A DNA stretch of 64,000 bases, taken from the NCBI GenBank assembly GCA_963721165.1, contig CAVRIE010000009.1:19800-83799 (forward strand). Reading direction: 5' to 3'. The notes below the pieces were generated by a model. It worked only from the letters and a program-made list of their open reading frames with translations. It was not told the DNA's origin and searched no databases. Within the stretch, counting starts at the first letter, position 1. The number at the start of each line of letters is the position of its first letter. The position numbers were made by a program, and so were the translations under genes. Of this stretch, positions 2,941 to 58,811 are shown piece after piece. The DNA is from an uncultured Actinomycetota bacterium (GTDB taxonomy: Bacteria; Actinomycetota; Actinomycetes; Propionibacteriales; Nocardioidaceae).

Positions 2941-3985
2941 ATGGCCCGCCTCCGCACCGTCTCGCCCAACAGCTCGGGCTGGACACGACGCCGCTCCGGC
3001 AAGGGGTTCGTCTACGTCGACGCCTCCGGTGCGCGGCTGTGCGATGAGGACTCAGAGCGCTGCAAGGCGCTGGTGATCCCTCCCGCGTGGGAGGAGGTCT
3101 GGATCTGCCCCCAGCCCAACGGCCACATCCAGGCGGTCGGGCGTCGACGCGGCGGGTCGGAGGCAGTACCTCTACCACCCCGAGTGGCGCGTCAAGCGCG
3201 ACAAGATGAAGTTCGACCGGGTCGCCGAGGTCGCGGCGATGCTGCCCAAGGCGCGGGCGGCGATCCTCGAGCACATCGCCCTCGACGGCATGCCGATGGA
3301 ACGGGCGGCAGCGACCGCCGTACGCCTCCTCGACCTCGGCTACTTCCGGATCGGGTCCGACTCGTACGCCGACTCCAACGGCAGCTTCGGGCTGACCACG
3401 CTGGAGAAGCGGCACGTGCGGCGCTCGCAGGGTCGGCTGGTGTTCTGCTTCATCGGCAAGTCGGGGGTCGAGCACTGCATCGAGATCGACGACCCGCTGG
3501 CGGTCTCGGCCGTGGAGACCATGCGCCGGCGACGCGGCGGAGGGGACCGGCTGCTGGCGTACCGCGACGGCCGGCTGTGGAACCCGCTCGATGCTGTCGC
3601 GGTCAACGGCTACCTCCGGGACACCACTGGGGCCGAGATCACCGCGAAGGACTTCCGGACCTGGCACGCCACCGTGCTCGCGGCCGTGTCGCTGGCCTCC
3701 TCGGAGGAGCCGGGTGAGTCCAAGGCGTCGCGCAAGCGGGCGGTGCGGAACGCGATGGTGGAGGTGTCGGAGTACCTCGGCAACACCCCGACCATCGCCC
3801 GCAGCTCCTACGTGGACCCCCGCGTGATCGACCTCTACGAGGACGGTACGACGATCGCCTCCGCCGTACGCCGTTCGTACGACTCGCCTGACGAGCGGCA
3901 GATCGCCCTGGAGCGAGCGGTGCTGCGGATGTTGCAGGAGGACGCGGCCTCCTCGGAGCGGGCAGCACGTCGCAAGGCCGCCTGA
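2941..3985 (+). CDS. Bacterial DNA topoisomerase IB; frameshift near 3140
   Basis: IPPAWEEVWICPQPNGHIQAVG joins VDAAGRRQYLYHPEW after removing one G; FRIGSDSY, FIGKSG, KDFRTWHAT, LGNTPTIARSSYVDP. Confidence 0.9.
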
Positions 3986-7558: not shown

Positions 7559-7721
7559 TCGGACCGAACGGCTCATCGTTCCCAGAGCACCGGATTACCC
7601 CATTCTGAGGGTGTTCCCCCTACGTCCGGGCTTTACCGTCGAAGAGTCCACAAGACTTGCAGGGGGGCTGCGGGTGATCGATGCCTATCCCGGTGCGCGG
7701 GCGCCGGAGGGGAAGTGCACG

Positions 7722-8941
7722 ATGCGGTCCACATCTGGTCGCCGCACCCTCCGGTCCGCGGTGTCGGTCGGCCTCGCCGTTTTCGTCGTCGGTGTCACGA
7801 GCGCTGCCTACCCAGAAGGCAACGAGAACTCAGGCTCATCATCGACAGCCTCGAACGGCTCCGCCGGCAACTCGTATATCGATGGCACCCAGCCCGGCGG
7901 CGACCTCCAAACGACTGACGGCACACCAACCGGGGAACAGCCAACTGACGGGGTGTCGCCTCCGGATGTGTCTCCACCGGTCGTGGCTCCACCGGTCGTG
8001 TACTCCGCCGGTCGTGTCTCCGCCTGTTGTGACTCCGCCTGTTGTGAGCTCCGCCGGTCGTGTCTCCGCCTGTTGTGACTCCGCCGGTCGTGTCTCCGCC
8101 TGTTGTGACTCCGCCGGTTGTGTCGACCACGTCCGACTGGAACCTCAATTTCACCTACGGCACGACCAACAACGGTGTCACCACGAACGACAGTTTCAAC
8201 AACGGCAGCTTCTGCAACGGGTCGTCCTCGGACTGTCGGTGCAACGACAGTTCTCACTGTGACGGCTCGAGCTGGCGGTGCGATAGCGGGAGCTTCTGCA
8301 ACGGGTCGTCCTCGGACTGTCGGTGCAACGACAGTTCTCACTGTGACGGCTCGAGCTGTGGGTGCGATAGCGGGAGCTTCTGCAACGGGTCGTCCTCGGA
8401 CTGTCGGTGCAACGACAGTTCTCACTGTGACGGCTCGAGCTGTGGGTGCGATAGCGGGAGCTTCTGCAACGGGTCGTCCTCGGACTGTCGGTGCAACGAC
8501 AGTTCTCACTGCGACGGCTCGAACTGCCGGTGCGACAGCAACAGCGCGCACTGCGACCACTCGAACTGCCGTTGCAACAACGACAATCACTCGTCGGACG
8601 GCAACTGCGGCTGCGACCGGGACACCGGCAACTCGACGGTGACGATATCGCCGGTCGCCACCCCGACAACGGTGCCCGTCACGGTGCCTGTCACGACGCC
8701 GGTCACGGTGCCTGTCACGACGCCGGTCGAGACGACCGTTCCGGCGGCTCCCGTGGTGACCCAGGCCGCCGTGCCGGCCGTCGTGGCAGCTCCCGTGGCA
8801 GCGCCTGCGCCCGCGGCTGCCCCGAGCCAGGGGACGCTGCCCAGGGTGGGTGCCGACTCGAAGGATGACCTGTTGGCCTTCGGAGGTGCCGCGATGCTGC
8901 TCACGGGGATCGTGCTGCTGCGGCTCCAGAGAAGGACCTAA
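7722..8941 (+). CDS. Secreted Cys-rich repeat protein with LPxTG-like (LPRVG) sorting signal; two +1 indels in the VSPPV repeats
   Basis: Signal peptide MRSTSGRRTLRSAVSVGLAVFVVGVTSAAY; Pro/Val repeats; Cys-rich repeats; Thr/Pro/Ala stalk; LPRVG + hydrophobic helix + RLQRRT. Confidence 0.8.
7953..8119 (+). repeat. 15-bp tandem repeat encoding V[S/T/A]PP[V/D] x11
   Basis: gtgtctccgcctgtt / gtgactccgccggtc units; two units are 16 nt (7998, 8044). Confidence 0.9.
8204..8539 (+). repeat. 84-bp tandem repeat x4 encoding GSFCNGSSSDCRCNDSSHCDGSSCGCDS
   Basis: Unit starts at 8204, 8288, 8372, 8456. Confidence 0.95.
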
Positions 8942-9002: not shown

Positions 9003-9038
9003 GTGGGCGGCAGTCTCTCAGTCGAGACTGCCGCCCAC
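9003..9038 (+). terminator. Terminator hairpin, copy 1
   Basis: gtgggcggcagtctc-tcagtc-gagactgccgcccac, 15-bp stem. Confidence 0.8.
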
Positions 9039-9265
9039 GGTTCGTTGTGAGGGTGCGGTGGACGGTCCCCCAAGCGACCGACGCCCACGCGTCTTTGGTG
9101 AAGACGGTGAGTCTGGCCTTCCCGCACCAGCTCGGAACTACCCGATTTTGAGGGCGCCTTTACTTACTTCGCGCTTTAGCGTCCCACAGGCAAAGGAGGC
9201 TTGCGCGGAGCTGCGTGCGAGCGACGACGATCCCGGCTCATTGTGCCGGAGGGTGGAGAAGCGTC

Positions 9266-10295
9266 ATGCATTGCTTACGTACTCGCGGGCATACGTTCCG
9301 CGCTGTCGCATCGGTCGGAATGGCCGTGTTCGTGCTCGGAGTCACCAGTCCGTCCTACGCCGACGACGGCAACGGCTCCCATGGGAACTCGTCTCACCAG
9401 GAGAAGTGGGCCGGCGAGAACTCGGCGGCGGCAACTGGGACGGCGGGAAGTCCGGCGGCGACAACTGGGATGGGGGAAGTCCGACGGCGGCAAGGAGTCC
9501 GGCTGGGACGGGGGAGAAGTCCGGCGGCGACAACTGGGACAGCGAGGAGTCCGGCTGGGACGGGGAGAAGTCCGGCGGCGACAACTGGGGCAGCGAGGAG
9601 TCCGGCTGGGACGGCGAGAAGTCCGGCGGCGACAAGGAGTCCGGCTGGGACGGGGAGAAGTCCGGCGGCGACAAGGAGTCCGGCTGGGACGGGGAGAAGT
9701 CCGGCCGTGACAAGTGGCACGGAGAGGACCACGGGGACAAGGACCACGGGGACAAGGACCACGGGGACAAGGACCACGGGGACAAGGAGCACGGGGACAA
9801 GGACCACGGGGACAAGGAGCACGGGGACAGGGACGCACGGGGACAAGGAGCACGGGGACAAGGAGCACGGGGACAAGGACCACGGGGACAAGGACCACGG
9901 GGACAAGGAGCACGGGGACAAGGAGCACGGCGACAAGGACCACGGGGACAAGGACCACGGCGACAAGGAGCACGGCGACAAGGACGACGAGGAAGAGTGC
10001 GAGTGCCCGAAGGAGGAGAAGCCTGAGAGAGGAGGTCCCGCCCGCTGAGCAGCCTCAGGAGCAGCCCGCTCCGCCCGAGGCCGTCCCGGCTGAGCAGCCC
10101 GCGCCTCCTGCGGAGGTCCCTGCCGCGCCGGCCGTCGCACCGGCCCCCGAGGCAGCGCCTGCCCCGGCCGCAGTGGCTCCGACCCAGGCTCTGCCGTCGG
10201 TCGGTGCCGACCCGGTGGACGAGGCCCTGGCGTTCGTAGGGGCCGGGATGGTGCTCTCGGGAGCCACCCTGCTGTGGCGTCGCAGAAGGGCTTGA
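9266..10295 (+). CDS. Secreted His/Trp/acidic repeat protein with LPxTG-like (LPSVG) sorting signal; several indels within the repeats
   Basis: Signal peptide MHCLRTRGHTFRAVASVGMAVFVLGVTSPSYA; ESGWDGEKSGGD repeats; HGDK[DE] repeats; Pro/Ala/Glu stalk; LPSVG + hydrophobic helix + WRRRRA. Confidence 0.8.
9430..9717 (+). repeat. 39/51-bp repeats encoding ESGWDGEKSGGD(K / NW[D/G]SE)
   Basis: gagtccggctgggacggggagaagtccggcggcgac repeated. Confidence 0.85.
9718..9985 (+). repeat. 15-bp tandem repeat cacggggacaagga[c/g] encoding HGDK[D/E] x17 after a leading HGED
   Basis: Counted directly; the unit at 9820-9835 is 16 nt. Confidence 0.95.
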
Positions 10296-10356: not shown

Positions 10357-10392
10357 GTGGGCGGCAGTCTCTCAGTCGGGACTGCCGCCCAC
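10357..10392 (+). terminator. Terminator hairpin, copy 2 (near-identical to 9003-9038)
   Basis: gtgggcggcagtctc-tcagtc-gggactgccgcccac, followed by ggggtttg. Confidence 0.8.
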
Positions 10393-17967: not shown

Positions 17968-18721
17968 TTGAAGAGGTTCGAGGGCAAGGTCGCGATCGTC
18001 ACCGGAGCCAGCCGGGGGATCGGTCTCGGGATCGCGGAGCGGCTCGTCGCCGAGGGCGCGAAGGTGACCGTCACCGCACGCAAGCCCGAGGCGCTCGAGG
18101 AGGCGGCGAAGAGCCTCGGCGGACCTGATGTGGCCCTCGCCGTTGCCGGGAAGGGCGACGACGTCGAGCACCAGGCCGACGCGATCCGCCAGACCATCGA
18201 GACCTTCGGCAGCGTCGACCTGCTGGTGAACAACACCGGCATCAACCCGGTGTACGGGCCGATGGTCGAGCTCGACCTCGGCGCCGCCCGCAAGATCTTC
18301 GAGGTCAACTGCCTGGCGGCGCTGTCGTGGGTGCAGCAGGCGTACAAGGCGTGGATGGGCGAGCACGGCGGCTCGGTCGTCAACGTGTCGTCCGTCGGCG
18401 GGCTCAAGCCGGCTCCCGGGCATCGGGTTCTACGGCGCCAGCAAGGCGATGCTGAACCACATCACCCAGGAGCTCGCCGTCGAGCTCGGCCCCGACATCC
18501 GGGTGAACGCGGTCGCCCCTGCCGTGGTGAAGACCAAGTTCGCGACCGCGCTCTACGAGGGCCGCGAGGACGAGGTGTCCGCGACCTACCCGCTCAAGCG
18601 GCTCGGTGTCCCGGAGGACATCGGCAGCGTGGTGGCGTTCCTGCTGTCCGAGGACGCGGCGTGGCTGACCGGCCAGGTCGTCGTGATCGACGGCGGGCTC
18701 ACGCTCACCGGCGGCGTCTGA
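17968..18721 (+). CDS. SDR oxidoreductase (DHRS4-like); frameshift near 18420
   Basis: TGASRGIG, NNTGINPVYGP, then IGFYGASK when reframed, IRVNAVAPAVVKTKFA. Confidence 0.88.
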
Positions 18722-20528: not shown

Positions 20529-21766
20529 ATGGAGTTCGCGTACGACGCCCGCACCGAGGAGCTCCGCGAGCAGCTGCTCGCGTTCATGGACGAGCACATC
20601 TACCCGAACGAGGCGCTCTTCCACGAGCAGCTCGACGCGCTCGAGAACAAGTGGGACTGGACCTCCGCGCCGGTGATGCAGGAGATCCGGGCCGAGGGCA
20701 AGAAGCAGGGGCTCTGGAACCTCTTCCTCCCCGGCGAGCACGGCGCCGGCCTCACGAACCTGCAGTACGCCCCGCTCGCCGAGATCACCGGCCGCTCCGG
20801 CCACCTCGCGCCCGCCGCCCTCAACTGCGCCGCCCCGGACACCGGCAACATGGAGGTGCTCGCGCAGTTCGGCAGCGAGGAGCAGAAGGAGCGCTGGCTG
20901 TCGCCGCTGCTCGACGGCACGATCCGCTCGGCGTTCGCGATGACCGAGCCGGACGTGGCCTCCTCCGACGCGACGAACATCAGCACCACGATCGAGCGCG
21001 ACCTTCGACGGCTGGGACCAACGGCGGATATGTCCTCAACGGCCGCAAGTGGTGGATCACCGGGGCGATGGCTCCCGCCTGCGAGATCTTCATCGTGATG
21101 GGCAAGACCGACTCATCAGCCGACAGGCACCGGCAGCAGTCGATGATCCTGGTCCCGCGCGACGCCCCCGGCCTCGTCGTGAAGCGCGGCATGGAGGTCT
21201 TCGGGTACGACGACCACGAGCACGGCGGCCACGCGGAGCTCGAGTTCAACGACGTCCGCGTCCCCGCCTCGAACCTGATCGGCGAGGAGGGCACCGGGTT
21301 CGCCATCGCGCAGGCCCGCCTCGGCCCCGGCCGGATCCACCACTGCATGCGCGCGATCGGTGTCGCCGAGCGGGCGATCGAGCTGATGTGCAAGCGGTCG
21401 GTCGAACGGGTCGCGTTCGGCAAGCCTCTTGCGAGCCAGGGCGTCGTGCGCGAGTGGATCGCGGAGTCGCGGGTGAAGATCGAGCAGCTGCGCCTGCTCG
21501 TGCTCAAGACCGCCTGGCTGATGGACACCGTCGGCAACAAGGGCGCGCACACCGAGATCCAGGCGATCAAGATCGCCACCCCCGAGACCGTCCAGTGGAT
21601 CCTCGACAAGGCGATCCAGGTGCACGGCGGCGGCGGCCTGTCCCAGGACTTCCCGCTGGCCCAGCAGTTCGCCGGCATCCGCACGCTCCGCTTCGCCGAC
21701 GGCCCGGACGAGGTCCACAAGATGTCCCTGGCCCGCAGGGAGATCAAGAAGCAGGTGGGGCTGTGA
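20529..21766 (+). CDS. Acyl-CoA dehydrogenase (ACAD10/11-like, LvaC-like); frameshift near 21002
   Basis: [74 protein letters not shown]. Confidence 0.9.
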
Positions 21767-22975
21767 GCTCGCCTGCCGCGAGGACGTTCGCCGCGACCTC
21801 GCGGAGCGGGTCGAGAAGCTGCTCTCGTCGTGCCCGCCTGCCTCCACGGACCGGCTGGAGTTCCTCCGCGCCCGCTTCGACGCGGGGCTCGCGTGGGTGC
21901 ACTTCCCCGAAGGGCTCGGCGGGCTCGGGCTCGCGCGTGGCTTCCAGCAGTACGTCGAGCAGCTGCTCGCCGAGGCCGGGGCGCCGGACAACGAGCCGCG
22001 CAAGATCGGGATCGGCCTCGGCATGGCCGCACCCACGATCCTGGCCTTCGGCACCGAGGAGCAGAAGCAGCAGTTCCTCCGCCCGTTGTGGACCGGCGAG
22101 GAGGTGTGGTGCCAGCTGTTCAGCGAGCCCGGCGCCGGGATCCGACCTCGCCGCGCTCGCGACGCGGGCGGTCCGTCACGGCGACGGGCCCGACGCGACC
22201 TGGGTCGTGAACGGGCAGAAGGTCTGGACGTCGAGCGCCCACAAGGCACAGCGGGCGATCCTCGTGGCGCGCACCGACCCGGATGCGCCCAAGCACAAGG
22301 GCATGACGTACTTCCTCGCCGACATGACCGACCCCGGCGTCGACGTACGACCGTTGCGCCAGCTCACCGGCGAGGCGGAGTTCAACGAGGTCTTCCTCTC
22401 CGACGTACGCATCCCCGACGCCCACCGCCTCGGCGAGGTAGGCGACGGCTGGAAGGTCGCGAACGCCACGCTGATGAACGAGCGTGTCGCGATCGGCGGG
22501 CACGCCGCACCGCGCGAGAGCGGGATGATCGGCCGAGGTCGCGGAGACGTGGCGTTCACGCCCGGAGCTGCGCACGCCCGGGATGCATGACCGGCTGATG
22601 TCCGGCTGGGTCGAGTCGGAGGTCTTCCGGCTGACCGGCGCGCGCCTGCGGCAGAAGCTCGCGGTCGGGGCGCCGGGCCCCGAGGGCTCCGCGATGAAGC
22701 TGACCTTCGCCCGGCTCGCCCAGGAGCTCAGCGGGCTCGAGGTCGAGCTGCTCGGCGAGGACGGCCTGCGTTACGGCGACTGGACGATGACCCGGCCCGA
22801 GCAGGTCGACTTCACCGGTCGCGACGCCGGCTACCGGTACCTCCGTGCCAAGGGCAACTCCATCGAGGGCGGCACCTCGGAGATCCTGCGCAACATCGTC
22901 GCGGAGCGGGTCCTCGGCCTGCCGACCGAGCCGCGCGTCGACAAGGACATCCCGTGGAAGGAGATCCCGCGATGA
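21763..22975 (+). CDS. Acyl-CoA dehydrogenase; frameshifts near 21775, 22140, 22545
   Basis: [19 protein letters not shown] + [45 protein letters not shown]. Confidence 0.85.
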
Positions 22976-39647: not shown

Positions 39648-41553
39648 TCAGCCGTTGCGGCGGCTGCGGGCTGCGCTGCGGGCGCGCAGACTCTGGTCGA
39701 GCACGACCTTGCGGATCCGCACCGACTCCGGCGTGACCTCGACGCACTCGTCCTCGCGGCAGAACTCCAGGCACTGCTCGAGCGAGAGCTTCTTCGGCGG
39801 GATCAGCTTCTCGAAGTTGTCCGACGTGGAGGAGCGGACGTTGGTCTGCTTCTTCTCCTTGGTGATGTTGACGTCCATGTCGTCCTCGCGAGAGTTCTCG
39901 CCGACGATCATGCCTTCGTACACCTCGGTGGTCGGCTCGATGAACATCGTGCCGCGCTCCTGCAGGTTGGTCATGGCGTACGCCGTCGCCGCTCCCGCCC
40001 GGTCGGCCACCAGGGAGCCGGAGGCGCGGGAGCGGATCTCGCCGGCCCACGGCTCGTAGCCCTCGAACACGTGGTGCGCGATGCCGGTGCCGCGGGTGTC
40101 GGTGAGGAACTCGGTGCGGAAGCCGATCAGGCCACGCGCGGGCACGAGGAACTCCATCCGGACCCACCCGGTGCCGTGGTTGGTCATCTGCTCCATGCGG
40201 CCCTTGCGGACGGCGAGGAGCTGGGTGATCGTGCCGAGGTACTCCTCGGGCGCGTCGATGGTCAGCCGCTCCACGGGCTCGTGGATCTTGCCGTCGATCT
40301 CGCGGGTGACCACCTGCGGCTTGCCGACGGTGAGCTCGTAGCCCTCACGCCGCATCTGCTCGACCAGGATCGCGAGCGCGAGCTCACCACGGCCCTGGAC
40401 CTCCCAGGCGTCGGGGCGCTCGGTCGGGAGGATCTTGATCGACACGTTGCCGACGAGCTCGGCGTCGAGGCGGTCCTTGACCAGGCGGGCGGTGACCTTG
40501 GAGCCCTTGACCCGGCCGGCGAGCGGCGAGGTGTTGGTGCCGATGGTCATCGAGATCGCCGGCTCGTCGACCGTGATCAGCGGCAGCGCGCTTCGGGTCG
40601 TTGGGGTCGGCGAGGGTCTCGCCGATCATGATGTCGGGGATGCCGGCGATGGCGACGATGTCACCGGGGCCGGCGGACTCGCCCGCCTTGCGCTCGAGGC
40701 CCTCGGTCACGAGGAGCTCGGTGATCTTGACGTTCGACACGGACCCGTCACGCTTCATCCACGCGACCTGCTGGCCCTTCTTGAGGGTGCCCTCCTTGAC
40801 GCGCACCAGCGCGAGGCGGCCCAGGAACGGGCTCGAGTCGAGGTTGGTCACGTGCGCCTGCAGCGGCGCGTCCTCGTGGTACACCGGGGCCGGGATGGTC
40901 TCGATGATGGTCTGGAACAGCGGCTCGAGGTTCTCGCTGTCGGGCAGCCCGCCGTTGTCCGGCAGCTTCAGCGACGCGCGGCCGGCCTTGGCGCTGGCGT
41001 AGACCACCGGGAAGTCGAGTGCCTCGGCGTTGTGGCTGTCGTCGAGCAGGTCCATGAACAGCTCGTAGGTCTCGTCGACGACCTCGCTGATCCGTGCGTC
41101 GGCGCGGTCCACCTTGTTGACGACGAGTACGACGGGCAGGTCGGCGTTGAGGGCCTTGCGGAGCACGAACCGGGTCTGGGGGAGCGGACCCTCGGACGCG
41201 TCCACGAGCAGCACGATGCCGTCGACCATGGACAGGCCGCGCTCGACCTCGCCGCCGAAGTCCGCGTGACCGGGGGTGTCGATGATGTTGATCGTCATCG
41301 CGCCGCCCTCGACGGACTGCGCGGCCTCGCCGGTGTACCGGATCGCGGTGTTCTTCGCGAGGATCGTGATGCCCTTCTCGCGCTCGAGGTCGCCGGAGTC
41401 CATGGCGCGCTCGTCGACGTGCTGGTGCTCGCCGAAGGCGCCGCCCTGCCACAGCATCGCGTCCACGAGCGTCGTCTTGCCGTGGTCGACGTGCGCGACG
41501 ATTGCGACGTTGCGCAGGTCGGAGCGGCTCTTGCGGGTGGTGTTCTCGGACAT
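39648..41553 (-). CDS. typA: Translational GTPase TypA/BipA; +1 frameshift near 40591
   Basis: LRNVAIVAHVDHGKTTLVD, EREKGITILAK, DTPGHADFGGEVER, NKVD, VQGRGELAL, LSLEQCLEF..EDECVEVTP. Confidence 0.96.
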
Positions 41554-41711
41554 GCGGCTGCGAACTCTGCTTTCGGGTTGAGGCTCCGGCGCGACGTCAT
41601 ACGACGGGGTCGGTGTTGCGACCAGGGTGGACGCCGCTGCGGAAAGACACTCCATTCTACCGGCGGGAGGGGCGTGAGCCGAATCGCGCGCTCGTCGTAC
41701 TGTCAGGAGGC

Positions 41712-42686
<975 letters not shown>

Positions 42687-42690
<4 letters not shown>

Positions 42691-45811: not shown

Positions 45812-48522
45812 GTGCGTCTCGCCCCCACCGATCCTCTCCCCGCTGCCTGCTCCCGGCTCCGGGCGCGGTGCCGTTCGCGGCCCGGCTCGCGCAGTTCGGC
45901 GACCGGGTCGCGGTGCGTACGTCGGGGGAGACGCTCACCTACGCCGAGCTCGCCCGGCTGGTCGCGCGGCGCGCTGAGCTCCTCGGCGGCACCCGTCGGC
46001 TGGTGCTCGTCGCGGGTGCCAACCGCCTCGACGCGCTCGTCACCTACCTGGCCGCCCTCTCCGCGGGCCATCCGGTGATCCTCGTGCCCGGCGACAACCC
46101 CGGGAACCTCGAGGCGGTCGTCCGGGCCTACGACCCCGACGTCGTCGCGGGACCTGACGGTGAGCTCGCCGAGCGGCGGCCCGGCACCGCCCACGACCTG
46201 CACCCCGACCTCGCGCTCCTGCTGTCCACCTCCGGCTCCACCGGCTCGCCCAAGCTGGTGCGGCTCTCCGCCGAGAACGTCCAGGCCAACGCCGCGTCGA
46301 TCGCGTCCTACCTCTCCATCCGGCCCTCCGACGTGGCGGCGACGACGCTGCCGATGCACTACTGCTACGGGCTGTCGGTCATCAACAGCCACCTGCTCGT
46401 CGGCGCCTCGCTCATGCTCACCTCGCTGTCGGTGGTCGACGGCTGCTTCTGGGACGAGTTCCGTGACGCGGGGGCCACGACGTTCGCGGCGGTGCCGTAC
46501 ACCTTCGACCTGCTCGACCGGGTCGGCTTCGACGCCATGGACCTGCCCTCGCTGCGCTACGTCACCCAGGCCGGCGGCCGCCTCGCGCCCGAGCGGGTCC
46601 GCCGCTACGCCGAGCTCGGCCGGAGCCGGGGGTGGGACCTGTTCGTGATGTACGGCCAGACCGAGGCCACCGCGCGGATGGCCTACCTCCCTCCGGACCT
46701 CGCGCTGACCTCGCCGGGCGCGATCGGCGTGCCCGTGCCGGGTGGGTCGTTCCGCCTGGAGCCGCTGCCGGAGGTGCCGCTGACGCGCAGGGGTGCGCCG
46801 GACGTGGGGGAGCTGGTCTACGACGGGCCGAACGTGATGATGGGCTACGCCGAGTCGCCGGCCGACCTCGCCCTGGGGCGGGTCACCACGTCGTTGCGGA
46901 CCGGTGACGTCGCCCGTCGTACGCCCGAGGGGCTGTTCGAGATCGTCGGCCGCCGCAACCGGTTCGCCAAGGTCTTCGGGCTGCGGATCGACCTCGACGA
47001 GGTGGAGCGGGTGTACGCCGACGAGGGGATGCTCGTCGCGTGCGCCGCGGCCGAGGGCGCCTCGGGGGAGCGGCTCGTGGTCGCGGTCTCCGACGACGCC
47101 GGCCCGGTCGACGTCACGCGGGTCGCGGCCGTGGCGAAGGAGCACGTCGGCCTGCCACCCGGGGCCGTCGCCGTGTGCCCCGTGCGCGAGGTGCCGCGGC
47201 TGCCCAACGGCAAGCCGGACTACCGCGCGGTGGCCGCTCTCGCGGTGGGTCAATACCCAGGTATGTCGGAACTGCTCTCGACGGCGAGCTTGCCACGGGA
47301 GGAGCAGTCCCCGCATCCCTGGTAACTCGCCAGACCCCGGTACGACGGGCGCGCGGCTGCGCGAGGTCTACGCGGAGGTGCTCCGGCGCGACGTCGTCCG
47401 CGACGAGGACACGTTCGTGTCGCTGGAGGGCGACTCGCTGTCCTACGTCGAGATGTCGATCCGGGTGGAGGAGGTGCTCGGCCACCTCCCGCCGAACTGG
47501 CACGTCACGCCGATCGGGGAGCTCGCCCCCCGCGAGGGGCGGGCCCGACCCGGCCGGTCGCTCGAGATGAACGTGCTGCTGCGAGCCCTGGCGATCATCG
47601 CGATCGTCGGCACGCACGCCAACCTCTTCGTCGTCCTCGGCGGCGCACACGTCCTGCTCGGTGTCGCCGGCTTCAACTTCGGCCGGTTCCACCTGACCGG
47701 CGCTCCGCGCGCCGAGCGGGTACGCCACCTCGCGTCGAGCATCACCCGGATCGCGGTGCCCTCGGTCGTCGTCATCGGGGTCGTCGCGGCGTTCACCGAG
47801 GGGCTCGGCTGGCGCAACGCCCTCCTGCTCAACGGCGTCCTGGGGTCGCGCGGTTGGACCGAGCCCGCCTGGCACTACTGGTTCATCGAGGCACTGCTCT
47901 ACACGCTGGTCGCACTCACCCTCGTCATCGCGTTGCCGGTCGTGGACCGGGCCGAACGCCGATGGCCGTTCTGGGTGCCGATGACGCTTTCCTGCGCTCG
48001 GGTTGCTCGACGCGCTACGAGATGGTCGAGGTCATGGGCGGCGACGTCATCCACCGCGCGAACGTCGTGTTCTGGCTGTTCGCGCTCGGCTGGGCGACGG
48101 TGAAGGCCGCCACGACGTCGCAGCGGGTCCTCGTCACGGTCGTCCTGGTCGCGAGCGTCCCCGGCTTCTTCGACGACCTGGCGCGTGACGCGGTCGTCGT
48201 CGCGGGCCTGCTCGCGCTCGTCTGGGTCCGCGCGGTCCGGGTGCCCGCGTGGGCTGCTCGCCTCACCGGCACCCTCGCGAGCGCCTCGCTCTACGTCTAC
48301 CTGGTGCACTGGCAGGTCTACCCGTACCTCGAGGACGAGGTGCCGTGGCTCGCGACGGTGCTGTCCCTCCTCGCCGGCATCGTGGTGTGGCAGGCCGTGG
48401 ACCGGGTCACCCCGCCCGTCGTACGCCTTGCCCGCGAAGCGGCCTCCCGGGGCGTCATCACCGCTGCAACGGTCCGCGAAGAGTGGCGTTGGGGGAATGG
48501 GGAACAATCTCGCGTGGTTTGA
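45812..48522 (+). CDS. NRPS-like adenylation - carrier protein - membrane acyltransferase (AT3-like); frameshifts near 45845, 47250-47330 and 47990
   Basis: A motifs [32 protein letters not shown]; carrier [11 protein letters not shown]; AT3-like [27 protein letters not shown] in ORFs 45805..47325, 46904..48103, 47854..48522. Confidence 0.8.
48494..48519 (+). promoter_or_regulatory. SigR/SigH-type promoter upstream of mshA
   Basis: GGAAT-N18-GTT exact spacing. Confidence 0.7.
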
Positions 48523-57859: not shown

Positions 57860-58577
57860 TTATTGACCGATCCCCACCGTGAGCCCTGCCACGAAGATGC
57901 CTGCGGCGACGAGCGCGGTGTAGGTCACGGAGATCCACAGCAGGGCCGGGGCGCCGATCTTGAGCGCGATGCGCAGCGGCAGGTGCCGGACGCCGGTCTC
58001 GTTGTCCTGAACGAGGTCCGGGAGGGTGTTGAGGAAGTGGATGCCGATGCCCAGCAGGGCGGCCAGGACGGTCATCGCCCAGGTCGGCGGGGACCCGTGC
58101 ATGCCGCCGCCGAGCCCGCCGTACGACAGGAACGCCGGGAGCAGGCCGAACGACACGATGTAGGGGAGCGGGGAGAGCACCGACTTCTTGAACCACAGGT
58201 TGTAGAGCCACGCGGAGGCGACCGCGCCCAGGTGCGCGAGGCCGGCGTAGGTGCCGTTGGCGATCGAGAGCGGGATCACCGCGAGCACGGCCACGGCGAT
58301 GGCGAACGTCACGGTGCCGGGGTCGATCCAGCCCATCGCGACGGGCTTGTCGAGGCGGCCGACCTCACGGTCCCGGTCGCGGTCGACGACGTCGTTGAGC
58401 CAGCCGACGGTGAGCTGGCCGGTCAGGACGGTGGCCGCCACCAGGCCCACCTCGAGGAGGTGGACGGCCGGTGAGAGCGGCAGCGGCGGAGAGGCCGACG
58501 GTCATGGCCAGGGTGGGCAGCGGATGGCTGGACAGGACGAGGGACAGGGTCGTGCCCCGCTGCTTCCTGAACTTCAT
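57860..58577 (-). CDS. UbiA-family prenyltransferase; frameshift near 58455
   Basis: WLNDVVDRDRD...DKP, HFLNTLPDLVQD; multi-TM; N-terminus SHPLPT in ORF 58365..58577. Confidence 0.85.
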
Positions 58578-58811
58578 GGCTCGCAGTATCGACCACCCGG
58601 CCGGTCGATGGGTGGACCACCCCGCGATTCGCAGGGAAACACAGGGGATTCGGTCGGTTCGTCATGTCCGGTAGTCGGGTGCCGAGGCCCCGCGACGCAC
58701 ACGAATCGGTCATCTGTCAAGCCCCGATTTGGCCTCTGACCTGCGCAAACGCCAAAAGGGCCGGCTCGGATGACGTGTTAGACTAGTCACCTAGGAAGGG
58801 GTACTTGGCAC

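Follow-up and report, generated by a model that had tools for sequence, protein, structure and literature searches.

The question raised by this locus is whether a short, regular His/acid repeat belongs to a real gene and, if so, what the product of that gene would do. The repeat lies in a 64,000-nt window (contig CAVRIE010000009.1 of assembly GCA_963721165.1) from an uncultured soil actinobacterium of the Nocardioidaceae, where a 15-nt tandem array encodes pentapeptides of the form HGD[K/R][D/E]. An earlier note, made from the letters of the window alone, had described the array as a possible metal-binding tract that would be displayed on the cell wall. Overall, our analysis points to a surface-displayed protein of a lineage-specific family, here named gene B, which would be encoded by an intact gene and carry a disordered, metal-capturing tract. 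Taken as a whole, this reading has in our judgement an even chance of being right, and its parts differ in strength.

The 15-nt repeat is genuine. Tandem Repeats Finder calls it at 9725-9993 with a period of 15, 17.9 copies, 92% matches and a score of 438. Anchored on the His codon, it shows 18 CACGG starts from 9718 to 9971, and it runs on the forward strand from 9718 to 9985 as one 12-nt unit (HGED) followed by 17 units of 15 nt (consensus CACGGGGACAAGGAC/G), with the codons CAC GGG/GGC GAC AAG/AGG GAC/GAG. When the whole 4.36-Mb genome was searched, the unit was found 17 times at the array and otherwise as isolated single matches; the repeat is therefore real and well above chance. The 17 HGDK[D/E] copies of the earlier note are present, each with one His, one Lys and two acids as described, except that one unit reads HGDRD and that the frame is broken at unit 8. 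This unit (9820-9835, CACGGGGACAGGGACG) has 16 bases, with a spacing of 16 from 9820 to 9836; units 1-8 lie in frame 1 and units 9-18 in frame 2 (coordinate modulo 3), and no single open frame carries them all as assembled. Directly after the array, DEEECECP is encoded at 9986-10009 (GAC GAG GAA GAG TGC GAG TGC CCG), one base short of the end at 10010 that had been given before. Of the 88 residues of the array 18 are His (20%) and 35 are Asp or Glu, that is, a high His content among acidic neighbours as in Hpn-type tracts. Successive His stand five residues apart throughout, hydrophobic residues are missing from the unit, the grand average of hydropathicity (GRAVY) is -2.9, and the charge is about -18 at pH 7 and about +2 at pH 5. 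The strings HGDKD and DHGDK are not mentioned in the literature, and the sole match to HGDKE is an unrelated preprint on nitrogen fixation.

By following the repeat consensus and the GC content at the three codon positions (GC1, GC2 and GC3), we have read the surroundings of the array as one gene on the forward strand, from 9266 to 10295, with a read-through product of about 343 aa and a mature part of 281 aa. It opens with a start codon and a Sec-type signal peptide (MHCLRTRGHTFRAVASVGMAVFVLGVTSPSYA, 9266-9361, frame 2) with a predicted cut after SYA, judged by eye; a signal of the kind ..FVLGVTSPSYADD.. recurs in the orthologues, and by sequence reading it has the features of an N-terminal Sec signal. 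Trp/Gly/acid repeats of the form (E/G)KSGGD(N/K)(W/E)..SGWDG follow at 9407-9714, with periods of 30, 39 and 51 nt in frames 1, 0 and 1, and with a GC3 of 0.92-0.98 in the chosen frames. After the His array comes the junction DEEECECPKEEKPE (9986-10028), which parallels ..GECEFPEEVPP.. of the orthologue in the related genome G003, then a Pro/Ala/Glu-rich stalk of the wall-spanning type (10029-10190, frame 0), similar to the stalks of the orthologues, and finally a sorting-signal-like C-terminus (10191-10295).

In the HGDK frame, GC1/GC2/GC3 are 0.67/0.43/0.98 ahead of the additional base at 9835 and 0.77/0.24/0.94 beyond it, and the intact neighbour genes show about 0.70/0.45/0.97. In every segment of the gene, the chosen frame has the GC3 of 0.92-0.98 and the low GC2 that are typical of this genome. 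Since this profile goes together with HGD[K/R] at the same place in intact orthologues, HGDK is, by these coding signals, the translated frame on either side of the shift; neither the remaining frames nor the opposite strand fits. Translation in another frame, which the earlier note had named as a threat to its reading, is thus answered in favour of the frame that it had assumed.

Comparison with relatives places the gene in a family. We have given the names gene A and gene B to the surface-protein genes that neighbour a shared pair of genes, for an SDR and an acyl-CoA dehydrogenase (ACAD). Gene A stands there in most genus members and has a signal peptide, an eight-Cys core, a Pro stalk and LPXTG; its core reads ..GGANGQCPGGPYCSTRDGS..GKPCAGCVGKADNKNP..GYECD..NPAHTGC, the invariant eight Cys being also written as GGANGxC..YCST..GKPCAGCVGKADNKNP..GYECD..NPAH..C. 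It is found at 226 loci across the Actinomycetota, in Nocardioidaceae, Frankiaceae, Pseudonocardiales and Mycobacteriales (e.g. L013:6485-7327 and L026:158-1075), and has no Pfam model. In the present genome (G000), it is absent from the syntenic site and present on another contig (G000:C16:63458-64484). Gene B has the leader, signal peptide, stalk and anchor of gene A together with a passenger of fold-less repeats, and occurs in only some genomes. The window gene shows all of its marks: the position beside SDR and ACAD, the leader, a signal of the type ..FxxGVTxPxYAD.., a fold-less passenger of H/D/G/W/C, the junction, the stalk and the sorting signal.

Syntenic gene B is intact beside the SDR and ACAD genes in G003, G004 and G008. 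In the orthologues an HGD[K/R]-type motif stands right before the Cys and the stalk, and it is at this spot that the window gene has its expanded array. The passengers otherwise differ: G003 has HHGDHHGDHHGDH and DHGDRDWGD (anchor LPATG), G008 has DWHGDWHGRHD.. and ..KCDEDEYTPP (LPVTG), G015 has four copies of DHGRWD (LPPTG), and G004 has CDGSSFDCHNGC repeats and then two copies of DRDDDHHGDKS (LPATG). The CxC ending emphasised by the earlier note exists in the window gene as DEEECECP but is not conserved, as relatives have ECEF, KCDEDEY or SHC instead.

The same array is found in one syntenic orthologue. In L060, which comes from the metagenome-assembled genome (MAG) MFD05674.bin.1.229, the order is gene A, gene B, SDR (80% identical) and ACAD (82% identical), and gene B there contains six copies of CACGGGGACAAGGAC and two of CACGGCGACAAGGAC, that is, eight HGDKD, at L060:8533-8655. 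The two arrays agree at 36 of 41 residues (BLASTP, E 7e-17), and because they use the same nucleotide unit, the minor Gly codon GGG included, they should be of common descent. With 17 copies here and 8 there, the array length varies between lineages, which bears out the expectation of a length-variable locus; the copy number would change in 15-nt steps via slippage or recombination. Together with its DHGGDKG, DHGDG and GEHGG repeats, L060 gene B has four His-Gly-acid repeat types in all, and its mature protein contains 46 His (13%) and an LPPTG anchor.

Searches beyond the locus returned little. The read-through protein had no match at E<=1e-3 among 5.8 billion proteins, a search for which the composition-bias correction is probably limiting; a metagenome scan gave three matches, compositional only; and the G003 passenger as query matched only itself in 201 Nocardioidaceae genomes. 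For the window gene, NCBIfam and PDB gave nothing relevant, and Pfam only a sub-threshold Pentapeptide_2. Based on these comparisons, gene B is a lineage-specific family of a Nocardioides-like soil genus, without a Pfam or NCBIfam model, and it is a new lineage-specific example of sortase-type surface proteins with low-complexity repeats. To judge from the alignments, the family keeps its chassis and exchanges His-, Cys- or Trp-rich acidic repeats within it.

As for the display on the wall that the earlier note had assumed, it stands in part. At the C-terminus, LPSVG (10191-10205) is followed by the hydrophobic segment ALAFVGAGMVLSGATLLW (10224-10277), RRRRA (10278-10292) and the stop, which is the tail expected of sortase substrates, and one sortase gene is present in the genome (PF04203, 84 bits, G000:C10:145943-146365, sole copy). 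On the other hand, Val occupies the scissile Thr position of LPXTG, the C-terminus has no TIGR01167 or PF00746 match at E<=1, and the gene is frame-broken as assembled. The anchors of gene B orthologues are LPATG, LPPTG or LPVTG, and both genes of G004, the only ones scanned, pass TIGR01167 (20.1 and 17.0 bits; cut-off 15.9). Even so, the C-terminal membrane segment would retain the product at the surface. We infer a surface location for the mature protein, with linkage to the wall in case LPSVG is a substrate of the sortase, and otherwise retention via this segment; in C. diphtheriae, ZnuF reaches the wall without a sortase motif (PMC12445094).

Three C-termini with Val for Thr were observed in this genome, namely LPSVG, LPRVG of the upstream paralogue (8837-8851) and LPGVG (G000:C9 about 15140, just outside the window), and the five other sorting signals are regular LPxTG. 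A systematic consensus artefact behind LPxVG was considered and ruled out: genome-wide against G004, T>V and V>T changes between orthologues number 20:20, and because these counts are symmetric the Thr>Val change looks real.

The composition of the passenger is what suggests a function. The mature part of the read-through protein has an isoelectric point of 4.45, a charge of -49 at pH 7 and a GRAVY of -1.9, with 19% Gly, 30% Asp+Glu, 11% Lys, 7% His, 4% Trp and two Cys (0.7%). AlphaFold2, run on the single sequence, predicts no secondary structure, with a mean predicted local distance difference test score (pLDDT) of 55 and a predicted template modelling score of 0.13, and the passenger is probably disordered by this prediction. 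Across the orthologues the unit sequences are wholly replaced, while enrichment in His, Cys, Trp and Asp persists (His 2.3-13% against a background of 2.3%; Cys up to 9.6% against 0.8%). The array would then be the His-rich portion of the fold-less passenger of a small secreted surface protein. That is, the tract would form a disordered brush with a net charge of about -17, whose 18 imidazoles and 35 carboxylates would capture Zn, Ni, Cu and Co at the envelope, and the captured metal would serve buffering or supply. Since the enrichment in metal ligands persists through unit turnover, and since surface zinc binders are known, capture of divalent transition metals at the cell surface is our best guess from composition, although we would place it slightly below an even chance.

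The protein resembles LPXTG sortase substrates in its signal peptide, its Pro-rich stalk, its pentapeptide-hydrophobic-basic tail and the single sortase gene of the genome, but it has LPSVG, no model match and no folded passenger domain. The SD repeats of staphylococcal Sdr and Clf proteins are glycosylated stalks that carry a folded ligand-binding domain, with a strain-variable copy number. They are likewise short-period, acidic, low-complexity tandem repeats of variable copy number near a wall anchor, whereas in the window protein the repeats are the whole passenger and contain one His per five residues, and there is no homology between the two. His-rich tracts binding Ni and Zn are found in Hpn and Hpn-like proteins of Helicobacter, in the tails of HypB, UreE and SlyD, and in the loops of ZnuA, AdcA and ZinT. 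The window array has the same dense His among Asp/Glu in a flexible segment; however, those tracts are cytoplasmic or sit on a folded binding protein, with no regular pentapeptide and no wall anchor. The His-rich loops of ZnuA and ZinT are cited in PMC10957091.

Among actinobacteria, ZnuG/CmrA of C. diphtheriae are surface proteins with sortase signals that bind zinc via His/Asp ligands; they have a folded region of about 150 aa between HxD and HxH, and are zinc-regulated and encoded in the znu cluster (PMC12445094). The HGD of the window array is a string of HxD, but the window protein has no HxH, no predicted fold and no znu-type neighbours, so it falls outside this group. Extracellular zinc is captured by streptococcal Pht proteins and by ZepA of Anabaena, which are located at the surface or sorted; Pht has HxxHxH triads in folded repeats, and ZepA is a folded PEP-CTERM protein (PMC10957091). 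The window protein differs from both: it has no HxxHxH triad and no Pfam match, and the ZepA motif is absent too.

Two further families were considered and rejected. Pentapeptide-repeat proteins (PF00805/PF01469) share the five-residue periodicity, but their A[D/N]LXX unit has a central hydrophobic residue for the beta-helix, and HGDKD has none; PF01469 reaches 14.6 bits against a cut-off of 26.4 (9517-9834), and AlphaFold2 predicts no strands. A metallothionein would show Cys-rich clusters of CxC/CxxC over much of its length, while the mature window protein has its two Cys only, and it is the paralogue that is Cys-rich.

Several observations weigh against the metal-capturing surface protein that we favour. 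Gene B is absent from most genus members, and is therefore dispensable. A Val at the scissile Thr position occurs in none of the 101 signals of related loci. The low pLDDT, obtained with one sequence, agrees with disorder without proving it. There is no gene for a metal transporter or chaperone near the locus, and inspection by eye, with no formal motif scan, found no known metal-regulator box in the conserved leader, only an ACCC-N7-GGGT dyad. Finally, the five frame changes in 1.03 kb are a density about 19-fold that of the genome background (0.26 per kb), and two of the five are deletions while the background consists almost entirely of insertions. Such a density needs an extra assumption, i.e. 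repeats and G-runs as error hotspots, or else real decay.

The lack of metal genes and metal-regulator boxes would suit a surface protein that is intact but whose tract is no specific binder of transition metals: a hydrophilic, dehydrin-like or polyampholyte brush that retains water or acts as a spacer, a layer with pH-switchable charge, or an acidic coat binding Ca2+ or minerals. The strong hydrophilicity of the mature part with its 19% Gly and 30% Asp+Glu, the change of the array charge from about -18 to about +2 between pH 7 and pH 5, and the missing predicted fold agree with it as well, and close orthologues exchange much of their His for Trp, Arg and Asp, DxDG-like strings included. In addition, short-period acidic repeats do act as stalks in staphylococcal Sdr/Clf. 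Still, every orthologue is enriched in His or Cys despite full unit turnover, L060 arrives at 13% His through four different His-Gly-acid repeat types, and a spacer would have nothing to display, there being no folded domain. We consider a non-specific tract of this kind rather unlikely, and metal capture remains the preferred function.

The other difficulty is the broken frame. Five changes of frame are required for the reading given above: -1 near 9425, -1 near 9475, +1 near 9513, +1 at 9835 and +1 near 10030, all on the forward strand. At 9423-9426 one base is lost (gagaagtCCggc against the repeat consensus gagaacTCggc), and at 9470-9476 another (gatgggggaag against gacggggagaag); one G is gained at 9509-9515 (gacGGGGGagaag against gacGGGGagaag of sister units); the fourth change (9830-9835) is the additional G in the 16-nt unit 8, accompanied by AAG>AGG; and at 10026-10034 one base is gained within cctgagAgaggagg.

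To put these changes into context, we have compared the genome with a 176-kb contig of G004, which belongs to the same genus. Of its 113 intact open reading frames (ORFs) of at least 200 aa, 88 have an orthologue here at 70% identity or more, and for 22 of these 88 the present genome has the gene broken into two or three frames; the 28 junctions, over about 108 kb, give 0.26 per kb. In local tblastn alignments the junctions are nearly all single-base insertions in this genome, in homopolymers and elsewhere. Six junctions were tested against Pfam: five fall within continuous domains (Aldedh, ACAD-M, BPD_transp_2 of a branched-chain permease, LigB and Aldo_ket_red), and the sixth lies between two domains of the translation GTPase BipA. 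These junction alignments with Pfam polarisation were used instead of a blastn gap census, which at 85% identity was too noisy for error typing. In the reverse control, six of the 65 ORFs intact in G000 appear split in G004, partly the same events viewed from the other side. As to core genes, rpoB (G000:C1:650-4345) is intact, and the adjacent rpoC (C1:110-520) is cut after about 138 residues by the contig end, its remainder not being found in the assembly.

Those relatives that have names are MAGs from the Microflora Danica project, built from Nanopore reads alone and polished in a single Medaka round (PMC12313526), and the present genome is presumably of the same kind. It is implausible that a quarter of the enzymes are broken in a free-living soil actinobacterium with 4.4 Mb, and damage biased to insertions is the opposite of bacterial gene decay; therefore consensus error is the likelier source. 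Gene B itself is frame-split within its repeats in two other long-contig MAGs, at least twice in G015 and once in L060, which points to a technical hotspot. Overall, we consider it likely that the five frame changes are consensus errors of a long-read MAG and that the real gene is intact.

The competing account is a true pseudogene, a copy that lost its function once it had been duplicated in tandem and its payload replaced. The frameshifts and the Thr>Val change would then be real mutations, and the array a relic that is not read as HGDK all the way through any more. It draws on the 19-fold density of frame changes and the dispensability of gene B already mentioned, and on the fact that frame splits and LPxVG are found in both genes of the tandem, with T>V changes that are no systematic artefact. 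Moreover, gene B is intact in G003 and G004, two genomes from a MAG project of the same kind. Nevertheless, the frameshifts carry little weight in a genome riddled with one-base insertions, which lie within conserved enzymes and between the domains of BipA. The units flanking each shift keep a GC3 of 0.94-0.98 and differ almost only at synonymous or D/E sites, and no stop codon or large deletion has accumulated. A pseudogene is unlikely in our view, although a serious competitor, and an intact gene is preferred. That the array is not translated as HGDK at all, either because another frame or strand is the gene or because it is non-coding, is highly improbable: all six frames are open over the array in this high-GC sequence, the gene frame as sequenced stops at 10046-10048, and an ORF caller would deliver a product at 9215-10048 reading TGTRT in its first half, but the codon-position GC profile of the genome appears only in the HGDK frame, and intact orthologues have HGD[K/R] in frame with signal peptide and anchor.

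Eight further genes of the window, whose G004 orthologues are intact, are broken into two or three frames, for the most part through the insertion of one base; they lie at about 2941-3958, 17968-18718, 20529-21763, 21031-22503, 39696-41646, 41643-42687, 45847-48519 and 57863-58790; those scanned with Pfam include BipA/TypA, an acyl-CoA dehydrogenase and an aldo/keto reductase. With a frameshift about every 4 kb, conserved enzyme genes included, assembly error is probable, and the broken genes, odd ORFs and 'pseudogenes' of this window need read support before any biological reading.

The gene is flanked by elements that recur in its relatives. Its promoter/leader (9140-9265, forward strand) is shared with the upstream paralogue (7590-7721) and with genes A and B of all genus members examined; the comparison, which took in the upstream regions of L013, L026, L028-L039 and the window, aligned 15 of them. 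They have in common ACTACCC-N7-GAGGGTGTC, a TAGNGT -10-like box and a TCCGGC..GCCGGA hairpin abutting the Shine-Dalgarno sequence GGTGGGGAG. The leader has no Rfam match and folds no better than shuffles. Downstream, a hairpin with a perfect 15-bp stem lies at 10357-10392 (forward strand), and a near-identical 36-nt palindrome follows the paralogue at 9003-9038; the two hairpins have -36.8 and -37.6 kcal/mol with z of -5.5 and -6.4. By sequence, these palindromes look like a dispersed element similar to repetitive extragenic palindromes that is used as a terminator. The paralogue itself (7717-8941, forward strand) stands in tandem upstream, has Cys-rich 84-nt repeats, and has the leader, signal peptide, stalk and 3' hairpin in common with the window gene. 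It is also frame-split, by about two shifts within its VSPPVV 15-nt repeat. The only Rfam matches, two in number, lie in the paralogue, below the threshold and due to chance.

Other secreted proteins with His/acid stretches have been seen outside the window. One, in the same genome at G000:C15 about 179760-180640 (forward strand), has a signal peptide, a long Asp/Glu/Ser region and nine copies of [S/D]HADED; an anchor is missing, and the gene immediately downstream encodes a sigma factor of the extracytoplasmic function type. Another, L126 (Ga0068861_100088570, 577-2211), is a small high-GC surface protein with a His/acid stretch (KEHGNEEHGNKE) and an LASTG signal, with a sortase gene immediately after it. 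It is apparently a further His/acid low-complexity sortase substrate in soil Actinobacteria.

Considering these features together, a modular 'payload cassette' system may exist in soil Nocardioidaceae and form a wall-tethered, extracellular metal-buffering layer, a broader idea that we regard as doubtful for the moment. Its fixed chassis would consist of the shared promoter/leader, the signal peptide, the Pro-rich stalk, the sorting signal and the 3' hairpin, and within it metal-ligand-rich, fold-less repeats would be swapped and expanded. The window gene and L060 would have a His/Asp payload, the paralogue and G004 one of Cys, and G003, G008 and G015 one of His/Trp/Asp/Cys, and capacity and selectivity would be tuned by the repeat type and the copy number. 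The LPxVG motifs in this species could be signs that the protein is no longer linked to the wall but is retained by the membrane or released. If the tract of gene B does bind metal, it would give a soil actinobacterium a simple and tunable means of keeping trace metals at its wall or keeping them out, with a capacity set by a slippage-prone 15-base repeat, and it would be a natural display scaffold for metal-capture peptides.

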